Shown piece by piece: positions 48,515 to 49,807 of a stretch of DNA of 64,000 nucleotides. Positions within the stretch are counted from its first letter, which is position 1. Each line of letters opens with the position of its first letter. The notes below the pieces were generated by a model, which searched no databases, was not told the DNA's origin, and saw nothing but the letters and a program-made list of their open reading frames with translations. The position numbers were made by a program, and so were the translations under genes. The DNA is from Oscillospiraceae bacterium (GTDB lineage Bacteria; Bacillota; Clostridia; Oscillospirales; CAG-272): NCBI GenBank assembly GCA_015063535.1, contig SVTY01000002.1:16034-80033 (forward strand). The letters are read 5' to 3'.

Positions 48515-49642
48515 ATGGTTTGCAGATCCGTACGGGTAAAAAACTTTCGGAATATTTCGGAGGCGGAGGTCACCTTTTCCGAAGGGGTCAATGTGCTGGT
48601 AGGAGAAAATGCCCAAGGAAAAAGCAATCTGTTGGAGGCGATCTTTTATCCTTCTGTGGGACGGAGCTTCCGAAGCTCTCATACGTCGGAGATGATCCGA
48701 TTCGGACAATCGGAGGCGGAAATTGAGCTATCCTATCGGGACGACCGAAGAGATCAGGTCATTAGGGTGAAGATCTTTCGGGACAAGCAGCGACAGGTAG
48801 AAAAAAACGGGTTGCGGATCGACAAGCTGTCGGATCTGGTGGGGTCGTTTCGAACGGTTCTGTTTTTTCCCGAGCATCTGTCTATGATCCGAAGCGGTCC
48901 TGCGGAACGGAGAAGCTATTTGGATCCTGCCATCAGCCGTCTTTATCCTCGGTATATTCATTCCTTACAGCGGTATCACTATTTTTTGAAGCAGCGTAAT
49001 GCGTTGATCAAAAGCGCTTACGGAGATCGAAAGACCTTTGATGCAACCGTAGAGCTTTGGAGCAAAGAGCTTGCCAAGGAGGCGGCGATCCTTTCCGAAT
49101 ACCGTCTTTCCTTTGTTCGCCGTGTGTCCGAGCATGTCGCTCATATTTTTGAGGAAATGACGGGGGAAAAGGAAATACCTACGGTTCATTATAAGGGATC
49201 TTCCGGGCAACCGGAGGAAGAATACGGAGATTTGGAAAAAACAGAGGATATGTATTTTTCTCTGTTGATGTCCTCTCATGACCGAGAAATTGCCGCAGGG
49301 GCGACATTGTGGGGGATCCATAAGGATGATATGGAGATCCAACTCAATGGAAAGAGTGCAAGAATTTACGCCTCTCAGGGGCAACAGCGTTCCTTGGCAC
49401 TTGCCTTGAAGTTGGCAGAGGGAGAGATCACCAGGGAGGAGTTTGGTGATGAGCCTGTTCTTCTTTTGGATGATGTGTTATCGGAGCTCGACGGAAGCCG
49501 TCGGGAATATCTGATTCATAAGATCAAGGATAAGCAGGTGATCCTGACCGGCTGTGAGCCGACTCTGCTCTCTGAGTTGGACGACGTTCATCGGATTTTA
49601 GTGAGAGAGGGGACTTACTTTTCTTTTGAAAAAGAAAAGTAA
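48515..49642 (+). CDS. recF: DNA replication/repair protein RecF
   Basis: 375 aa with Walker A 'GENAQGKSNLLEA', signature 'ASQGQQRS' and 'LLLDDVLSELD'. Confidence 0.95.
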   Translation: MVCRSVRVKNFRNISEAEVTFSEGVNVLVGENAQGKSNLLEAIFYPSVGRSFRSSHTSEMIRFGQSEAEIELSYRDDRRDQVIRVKIFRDKQRQVEKNGLRIDKLSDLVGSFRTVLFFPEHLSMIRSGPAERRSYLDPAISRLYPRYIHSLQRYHYFLKQRNALIKSAYGDRKTFDATVELWSKELAKEAAILSEYRLSFVRRVSEHVAHIFEEMTGEKEIPTVHYKGSSGQPEEEYGDLEKTEDMYFSLLMSSHDREIAAGATLWGIHKDDMEIQLNGKSARIYASQGQQRSLALALKLAEGEITREEFGDEPVLLLDDVLSELDGSRREYLIHKIKDKQVILTGCEPTLLSELDDVHRILVREGTYFSFEKEK

Positions 49643-49664
49643 GCAAAAGAAAACTTTGCAAAAT
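49614..49664 (+). repeat. modules A+B overlapping the recF stop codon
   Basis: CTTACTTTTCTTTTGAAAAAGAAAAGTAAG, then CAAAAGAAAACTTTGCAAAAT. The last recF codons (YFSFEKEK*) are encoded by the palindrome. Confidence 0.85.
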
Positions 49665-49723
49665 TTATCTTTAAAGTTTGTACAAAAGATAAAGCAAGCA
49701 AAAGAAAACATTACAAAAATTAT

Positions 49724-49792
49724 CTTGAAAGTTTTTGAAATTCTTAAAAACTTTTTTCAAAAAGTTTTTAAGTGGGGGATGGGGCAAAGCCC
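49724..49792 (+). repeat. 70-bp double-hairpin element (module C), copy 2
   Basis: TTGAAAGTTTTTGAAATTCTTAAAAACTTTTTTCAAAAAGTTTTTAAGTGGGGGATGGGGCAAAGCCCC. Ends 16 nt upstream of the remB ATG. Confidence 0.85.
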
Positions 49793-49807
49793 CAAAAAAT
49801 ACGTTTT

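Follow-up and report, generated by a model that had tools for sequence, protein, structure and literature searches.

Modular hairpin repeats in the recF|remB and gyrB|gyrA spacers belong to a previously undescribed family in uncultured gut Eubacteriales

The spacers between recF and remB and between gyrB and gyrA in a 64-kb stretch of DNA from an Oscillospiraceae bacterium (hereafter the window) are occupied by small modular hairpin repeats of a family not described before, found in uncultured gut Eubacteriales (Ruminococcaceae-like). A composite of this family has an optional GGATGCG motif, a hairpin (A) and a short tract (B) past the stop codon of the upstream gene, then zero to five tandem units each made of a hairpin and a B tract, and last a module C, which itself consists of a 10-nt flank repeat, a hairpin 1 of variable sequence, the motif YRGGG, at least one GC hairpin, and either a Shine-Dalgarno (SD)-like RAGGTCTTA or an A-rich tail. 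Compensatory substitutions preserve both C hairpins as well as hairpin A, and copies have been gained, lost, expanded and swapped between related species, with recombination of the modules. With moderate confidence we read the repeats as a new BOX- or REP-like family, co-transcribed with the neighbouring genes and acting at the RNA level as cistron-boundary elements, and they probably shape the cutting, protection or translation of mRNA.

The identities of RecF, GyrB and GyrA were confirmed by precomputed Pfam matches, and hmmscan identified remB by a weak RemA-like match, kdgK as a PfkB kinase and eda as a KDPG aldolase. A preliminary description of the window held that the two spacers were built from the same ordered modules, and this is borne out: A is followed by B (CAAAAGAAAAC) in each, and a 35-mer of C, CTTAAAAACTTTTTTCAAAAAGTTTTTAAGTGGGG, occurs exactly at both 49743-49777 and 52112-52146, where shuffles give an expectation of zero. 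At the end of recF, A (49614-49643, plus strand, as are all the modules of these spacers) is a perfect 14+2+14 palindrome, CTTACTTTTCTTTT-GA-AAAAGAAAAGTAAG, and the translation agrees with the earlier suggestion that it encodes the 3′ end of the gene, since the final nine codons of recF, together with its stop, lie within it (T Y F S F E K E K stop). It is followed by a 55-nt unit (49644-49698), made of B (49644-49654) and a diverged A-like hairpin, TTTATCTTT...AAAGATAAA, which recurs twice at 15850-15959 in a repeat scan and five times in tandem in a related contig (L064). A second B (49699-49709) and an A-rich linker extend to 49721, and C then occupies 49722-49806 (92.8 bits with the covariance model introduced below), with the 5′ flank GAAAGTTTTTGAAATT, hairpin 1 (49743-49772), TGGGGG, GC hairpin 2 (49781-49793) and an A-rich tail that finishes 1 nt upstream of the remB ATG (49808).

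A similar arrangement is found in the gyrB|gyrA spacer, where the 5′ part (52029-52077) begins just past the gyrB stop (52026) with a GGATGC motif (52029-52034) followed by A (52037-52066) and B (52067-52077). This second A copy is present as described, with one mismatch in the outer stem, though it starts at 52037 and not at 52035. Module C lies at 52091-52175 (hairpin 1 at 52112-52141, GC hairpin 2 at 52149-52163; 93.1 bits), and 3′ of it come the native gyrA ribosome-binding region CAGGCAGGTAAAAG, which is kept in relatives that lack the composite, and the gyrA TTG start at 52189. The third C copy reported before kdgK is also real; it occupies 30357-30443 on the plus strand (86.1 bits), with hairpin 1 at 30378-30409, a 2-nt loop insertion relative to the others and the GC hairpin GGGGTGAAACCCC at 30418-30430, and the kdgK ATG lies downstream at 30465. 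All three window copies of C, an element of about 85 nt with two hairpins, are intercistronic (eda|kdgK, recF|remB and gyrB|gyrA), and their GC hairpins read as first written: GGGGCAAAGCCCC, CGGGGCAACGCCCCG and GGGGTGAAACCCC. Four metagenome contigs of the same species as the window have identical spacers, with one substitution in L060.

Two small ‘genes’ have been called in these same spacers, of 65 and 45 amino acids (window 49626-49823 and 52031-52168; L057 11112-11309 and 13517-13654). They are almost certainly artefacts, having no Pfam match and coinciding with the repeats.

Comparisons of C copies and of orthologous sites were made on metagenome contigs labelled in the form L001 (L043, L045, L060-L065 and others). 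A covariance model built from 48 C copies was searched against 445 kb of related ruminant- and human-gut contigs and gave 75 full-length copies, accepted at E<2e-8. The preliminary description had argued from paired changes between the GC hairpins for selection on structure, and the larger sample bears this out: in the alignment of the 75 copies, which was fitted to the model and is to that extent biased toward the structure, compensatory double changes are seen at 18 of the 22 base pairs, in 153 cells, and pairing holds in 98.6% of cells, a result matched by none of 500 shuffles, while slid controls are 36-68% paired. An independent MAFFT alignment of copies retrieved by pattern gives compensatory changes in 7 of the 22 pairs, again reached by 0 of 500 shuffles, with 99% of cells pairing and compensatory changes in five of the eight GC-hairpin pairs; significance holds for the portion that the retrieval pattern left free. 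RNAalifold returns the same two helices as the model. The shape of hairpin 1 is constant and its sequence varies (CTTAAAAACTTCTT/AAGAAGTTTTTAAG, CTTAGGGGACTTCT/AGAAGTCCCCTAAG, CTTAGAACCTTCCT/AGGAAGGTTCTAAG, CAAAAGAAACTTTTT/AAAAAGTTTCTTTTG and others). C shows compensatory substitutions beyond the controls, the mark of a structured cis-acting RNA element.

Wobble pairs indicate which strand folds. G.U exceeds A.C by 13:4, or by 58:5 when the terminal pair is counted, and the sense strand is therefore taken as the folded strand. The conserved unpaired parts of C are the 5′ flank AAAGTTCTTGARRGT, a central CTAAG-YRGGG-TTY and the 3′ RAGGTCTTA; the flank repeats the outer left arm directly over 10-11 nt, and the run of purines in it co-varies with the stem. 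The SD-like 3′ motif is itself the SD in L046, L055 and L015.

Covariation this strong in a 5′-leader location might suggest independent small-RNA genes or riboswitch-like leaders. We give this almost no credence: the elements have no promoter or terminator of their own, dozens of copies stand before unrelated genes, the GC units occur in tandem, and no Rfam family matches. At gathering thresholds Rfam 15 returned only a T-box (window 35780-36032) and a tRNA (L045), and in relaxed mode the best matches scored 12-23 bits against thresholds of 35-128.

Beyond the window, a 19-mer scan of species-representative genomes found true C copies in only two ruminant-gut ‘Clostridia bacterium’ metagenome-assembled genomes. 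A gapped pattern leaving the inner stem and GC hairpin free retrieved 45 metagenome loci, 42 of them true C copies; most are from human gut, and many lie at contig ends, which indicates that assemblies break at the repeat. One contig carrying C is annotated ‘Eubacteriales bacterium’. The GC units of C are repeated in direct tandem in metagenome copies, and in these higher-GC genomes C stands at the 3′ end of a longer composite, about 230-300 nt in length and sometimes itself tandem. Upstream of C in human-gut copies (L043 2150-2400, L045 4900-5540 and many more) there is a multi-hairpin module of about 150 nt, CCATTTCTATCCGGTAGCGGAGAG...CCAAATCCCGCTGGACGGGATTTGG...GCAGCCGGAAT...ACGGCTAC...GGGGGAAAATCCCCC, without an Rfam match; the same negative search led us to reject the idea that these 150 nt are the 3′ end of a group II intron. 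A phage or plasmid origin of the repeat was likewise rejected, with no match in viral contigs or plasmids, and a literature search by sequence string and keywords gave no description of it. The earlier failure to recognise the sequence thus extends to Rfam, plasmids, viral contigs and the literature.

Where the copies lie relative to genes was tested by asking whether, within 130 nt, there was a start codon with an SD-like tetramer and an open reading frame (ORF) of 80 codons or more, with a mirror test on the 5′ side, antisense, as control; tallies of orientation by ORF length were too noisy, and this test was used instead. Downstream of C in the sense direction 42 of 70 evaluable copies pass, 37 of them within 60 nt and with a median of 27 nt between hairpin 2 and the start codon, compared with 5 of 53 in the antisense mirror test (Fisher P=6.5e-9). 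The observation that C points at the downstream gene, made originally on the three window copies, therefore generalises as a strong bias, though not as a rule, as a C copy past gyrA in L064 is antisense to both flanking genes. The genes downstream share no function (gyrA, remB, kdgK, and nrdG-like, mtnN-like, recN-like and rbsK-like genes). Six of the seven A-B copies in the window begin between -29 and +50 nt from a co-oriented stop codon. A replication-strand bias was considered as the source of the orientations and rejected, as copies on the same side of the dnaA/oriC region take both directions, following the genes (15965 minus; 31838 and 35545 plus).

Around remB, the start region differs between filled and empty sites. 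The gene lacks an SD where the composite is present (window 49773-49810; L061 9735-9775), the sole SD-like run before the window copy being TGGGGG, upstream of the GC hairpin, while the empty site in L063 (11105-11128) has an AAGGAG SD before remB.

Such positions would also be expected of a terminator-plus-promoter cassette, or ‘mobile promoter’, in which A at the stop codon ends the upstream transcript and C, directly upstream of a ribosome-binding site and ATG in about 60% of copies, serves as a non-canonical promoter with a stem-loop in the 5′ untranslated region; the TTG in the 5′ flank of C is invariant, and in human gut C is preceded by a GC hairpin with a T-rich tail. Yet no U-tract follows A, hairpin 1 or hairpin 2, where A-rich or G-rich sequence is found instead, and a consensus scan of the sense strand of C found no sigma-70 -35/-10 hexamers at 16-18 nt; the sequence 17 nt past the invariant TTG is the hairpin loop (CAAGAA), with no -10 at the needed distance. 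Canonical signals are in use elsewhere in the window, both terminators (GC hairpin and T-run at 10946, 45228, 55682 and 61107) and TTGACA/TATAAT promoters (26130, 32063, 35735 and 39229). Hairpin 1 is too variable to hold promoter hexamers, and copies lie in convergent spacers (L045) and in tandem. A cassette of this sort is extremely unlikely, and the view of the preliminary description that the repeats are neither terminators nor promoters stands.

Modules A and B are related to each other by symmetry. In 12 of 12 distinct A-B copies A has the pyrimidine (Y) arm T(n)CT4 and the purine (R) arm A4GA(n), B reads C-A(n)GA4-C, n being 4, 5 or 6, and the junction of the R arm to B reads GTAAG/GTAC + C; the variant in L062 and L065 has the R arm GA3GA4 followed by B as A4GA3G. 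B therefore mirrors the R arm of A in all 12 copies, through four variants. Two other relations were tried and rejected: that B is a direct repeat of the purine arm is ruled out by the GA3GA4/A4GA3G variant, and the variants with n=5 or n=6 exclude it as an alternative Watson-Crick partner of the pyrimidine arm. H-DNA and R*R-Y triplexes classically require a homopurine mirror repeat, and in A-B the R arm and B form a perfect one beside their Y partner, a homopurine-homopyrimidine mirror repeat in which the three tracts co-vary. The connecting loop would be too short for a three-strand fold unless the outer CTTA/TAAG pairs open. The RNA triple-helix stability elements known as ENEs, with their A-rich tract, are built from two U-rich strands and one A-rich (U.A-U), whereas A-B, a candidate triplex only, would be of the R*R-Y type, with a single Y strand and a pair of R strands. 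It is tempting, if rather doubtful, to see in A-B and C a dedicated, lineage-specific system that marks cistron boundaries in mRNA, with A-B as a bacterial triple-helix 3′-end or boundary element of three strands (Y arm, R arm and mirror tract) and C as a two-hairpin 5′ element, its flank able to pair alternatively and its SD-like motifs built in, to be read by a specific RNA-binding protein or the ribosome; the whole would be a portable post-transcriptional cassette in hundreds of operon spacers.

The same symmetry could serve at the level of DNA, with cruciforms and the H-DNA mirror repeat acting as non-B-DNA or protein sites, either as topological barriers or as sites for gyrase, a nucleoid protein or a global regulator between transcription units. 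The arms are perfect with centres of 1-2 nt, B mirrors the purine arm in every copy as the H-DNA sequence requirement demands, the A/T tracts in C are phased at 10 nt, and some Escherichia coli BIMEs bind gyrase. The sequence of hairpin 1, however, is free while its pairing is kept, which leaves no fixed operator; G.U is tolerated and A.C is not, which points to one folded strand; an orientation bias relative to genes is unexpected for a symmetric DNA site; and the downstream genes have no common function. We consider a DNA-level element highly unlikely.

Orthologous sites differ between related species. At recF|remB, L063 (RecF 75% identical) has an empty site of 12 nt, the window has A-B-unit-B-C, L061 (RecF 88%) has A-B-C′ without the unit, L064 (RecF 73%) has A and five 55-nt units and L065 (RecF 70%) has A and four 77-nt units, so the tandem unit number is 0, 1, 4 or 5 (in L061, the window, L065 and L064). 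At gyrB|gyrA, A-B-C is present in the window, L061 and L063, and a DUF4886 gene stands in its place in L062, L064 and L065. The similarity of C is decoupled from species divergence: between the window and L063 the flanks are 82-84% identical and the C modules 89.5%, whereas between the window and L061 the flanks are 89-92% identical and the C modules 73%, which indicates turnover or gene conversion among family members. The recF tail, YFSF.KEK*, is kept across lineages with 69-88% RecF identity and varies in the loop codon alone, a pattern that argues for selection acting on the nucleic-acid hairpin rather than the peptide. In L062 (17330-17720) and L065 (11455-11845) the spacer between gyrA and the next gene is a stretch of about 390 nt of assorted hairpin modules, flanked by inverted 9-bp ends, TAGGATGCG...CGCATCCTA, the sole MITE-like terminal inverted repeat (TIR) that we saw.

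The main rival explanation is that the repeats are purely selfish DNA, either a non-autonomous MITE or an element of the REP/REPIN or IS200/IS605-PATE type, whose hairpins are single-stranded DNA marks for a transposase acting in trans and whose pattern is one of tolerated insertions. Presence/absence and unit-number polymorphism at orthologous sites speak for it, as does the decoupling of C from species divergence, and it is also in keeping with the high copy number with assembly breaks, the tandem composites, the antisense and reversed copies, the inverted 9-bp ends around a whole spacer in L062 and L065, and the GTAG-headed REP-like hairpin family in the same genomes described below; moreover, in packed operons the only neutral insertion point runs from the stop codon to the ribosome-binding site, which would mimic the observed position. 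Nevertheless, the filled recF|remB site of the window compared with the empty one of L063 shows no target-site duplication, there is no general TIR around A-B-C, and no transposase was seen beside any copy, though no systematic search was made. The A palindrome persists at the recF 3′ end across the lineages just mentioned, and both the 42/70 versus 5/53 asymmetry and the G.U excess need RNA-level selection in addition. Selfish DNA and nothing else is accordingly possible but, in our judgement, unlikely.

Among described families, one close in build is the pneumococcal BOX element, whose boxA-boxB(n)-boxC composites are intergenic, are predicted to form stem-loops when transcribed, are often co-transcribed and have reported effects on downstream expression (PMC3049150). 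The resemblance noticed in the preliminary description is found at recF|remB, where a fixed 5′ module is followed by a tandem middle unit of variable number and a 3′ module. The sequences are nonetheless unrelated by eye, Rfam and the literature gave no link, and the host is an uncultured gut Clostridia and not a Streptococcus; modules here also stand alone (A-B, C), no IS-like TIR was found, and the sense, start-proximal placement and mirror-symmetric B are features of this family and not of BOX.

The REP elements of Proteobacteria make the mRNA upstream of them more stable, and those lying no more than about 15 nt from a stop codon lower the translation of the upstream gene. Our repeats share with REP, BIME and REPIN elements the short GC hairpins, often arrayed, in transcribed spacers, and hairpin A lies at REP-like distances from stop codons, but C units are mostly 5′ of genes and not 3′, lack a GTAG head and are in direct tandem and not inverted. 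A second interspersed repeat in these genomes, a GC hairpin TGTAGGGAC(A/C)GGCGTC..CG.C.GTCC (window 31935-31961 and 35638-35664; L062 6233 and 11313; L064 7854; L065 5352), has the GTAG head, and in L062, L064 and L065 its copies are paired in inverted orientation at a distance of about 110 nt, as in REPs and REPINs, an architecture which suggests that a RAYT-type system is present. As a separate matter, we compared the palindromes by eye with CodY, LexA, CtsR, SigB/H/W and TcdR-type sites and with integron attC, and neither sequence nor spacing fits.

Correia elements of Neisseria and ERIC elements of Enterobacteria are transcribed repeats whose hairpins make RNase III or RNase E processing sites and alter the stability of flanking cistrons (PMC3049150). 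Those families have TIRs, and Correia also TA duplications, neither of which is seen in A-B-C. The 5′ stabilisers of Firmicutes (the aprE and ermC 5′ stem-loops and the cryIIIA STAB-SD) are single-locus leaders at primary 5′ ends. They resemble C in placing a stem-loop and an SD-like sequence upstream of the real ribosome-binding site, as C does with its hairpins and RAGGTCTTA or GGGG runs; C differs in being a dispersed repeat, with a putative stabilising role.

Taken together, these parallels suggest how an RNA-level cistron-boundary element might work. The modules would form part of the transcripts of the adjoining genes and would work as RNA. Placed on or beside the stop codon, hairpin A would cap the upstream cistron, blocking 3′ exonucleases and perhaps damping termination-proximal translation, and the A-rich, single-stranded B and linker would offer a cut site to an endonuclease such as RNase Y. 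The C hairpins and SD-like motif would both protect and insulate the downstream cistron at its 5′ end and where its translation begins, so that genes of one operon (recF/remB, gyrB/gyrA, eda/kdgK) would meet different mRNA fates. Spread and homogenisation would proceed by copy-paste, through gene conversion or mobilisation in trans, by a machinery that is only postulated.

Several points weigh against this proposal. Co-transcription, cleavage in B and the effect on stability are argued from analogy with REP, ERIC, Correia and the Bacillus 5′ stabilisers. Thermodynamic folding is alike on both strands (z = -4.6 sense, -6.1 antisense), so the choice of strand rests on the wobble asymmetry and the orientation. 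The positional bias could reflect where insertion is preferred, or a selfish element under purifying selection, rather than a function, and the ORF-based gene calls on metagenome contigs are crude. The antisense C copy of L064 is joined by three tandem composites in a convergent spacer of L045, which cannot serve a downstream gene, and reversed A-B copies, some of them just 5′ of a start codon, are tolerated at window position 15803, at L062 17664 and upstream of gidA in L064.

The repeat scan together with pattern searches brought the A-B copies of the window to seven, five beyond the two first reported, and added the 55-nt tandem unit, a hairpin D and the GGATGCG-type tandem motifs, 8-10-mers that sit, one to three in tandem, before A or hairpin D. 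Directly 3′ of the eda stop, 30197-30255 (plus strand) holds (GCGAGGAT)x3-GCG and hairpin D (30224-30255), TTTAAGAAACTTTTT-GA-AAAAAGTTTCTTAAA, a variant of hairpin 1 that the covariance model matches at 30211-30277 and that is also found in L009. On the minus strand, the composite after an AraC-family gene (15850-16020) has (GGATGCGAA)x3, A (15965-15994), B (15954-15964) and the two 55-nt units (15850-15959). Inverted relative to it is a truncated A′-B′ at 15803-15841 on the plus strand, GTTCTTTTTT-CTTTT-AAAAAAGAAC with CAAAAAAGAAAATG, just upstream of a minus-strand gene start (15764). Three further variants are all on the plus strand: at 31820-31878, GGATGCGAGGAATGCG is followed by an A with a CCTCC outer stem (31838-31867) and B (31868-31878); at 35545-35591, 18 nt past the aroA stop, an n=6 A, TGGTACTTTTTTCTTTT-AA-AAAAGAAAAAAGTACCA, precedes a B that reads A6GA4C; and at 46799-46843 another n=6 A with its B lies 23 nt past the dnaA stop, at the edge of the dnaA|dnaN spacer.

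That spacer (46853-47301) is itself oriC-like, with several DnaA-box-like sites that are variants of TTTTCCACA/TGTGGAAAA and with extreme AT richness at about 47250-47290, and a 108-amino-acid ORF called at 46797-47123, which has no Pfam match and overlaps A-B and the DnaA boxes, is probably spurious. Elsewhere in the window, a perfect palindrome, TGTTTCACGTGAAACA, occurs four times in consecutive promoter-proximal spacers (60341-60360, 61250-61269, 62168-62187 and 62203-62222), and these copies look like operators of one regulator of the neighbouring genes. The T-box leader at 35780-36032 (Rfam RF00230, 104 bits) lies past a promoter, TTGACA...TGGTAAAAT (about 35735), and before an ABC substrate-binding-protein gene (36125-37165). 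Two adjacent paralogues (22896-23984 and 24010-25083), 72-83% identical in DNA at a spacing of 1099 nt, represent a tandem duplication.

For those who work with these genomes, the repeats break short-read assemblies, yield spurious ORF calls such as the 65-, 45- and 108-amino-acid ones above, and rewrite the ends of genes, as in the recF tail, and ribosome-binding sites, as in remB. The C motif, 85 nt long with covariation at 18 pairs, is a ready candidate for Rfam and structure probing, and the mirror-symmetric A-B is a natural candidate for a bacterial triplex. If the modules do act on RNA, portable elements that uncouple the fates of neighbouring cistrons would be present in a large share of the operons of gut Clostridia that are abundant yet uncultured, a layer of regulation that would be invisible to protein-based annotation.

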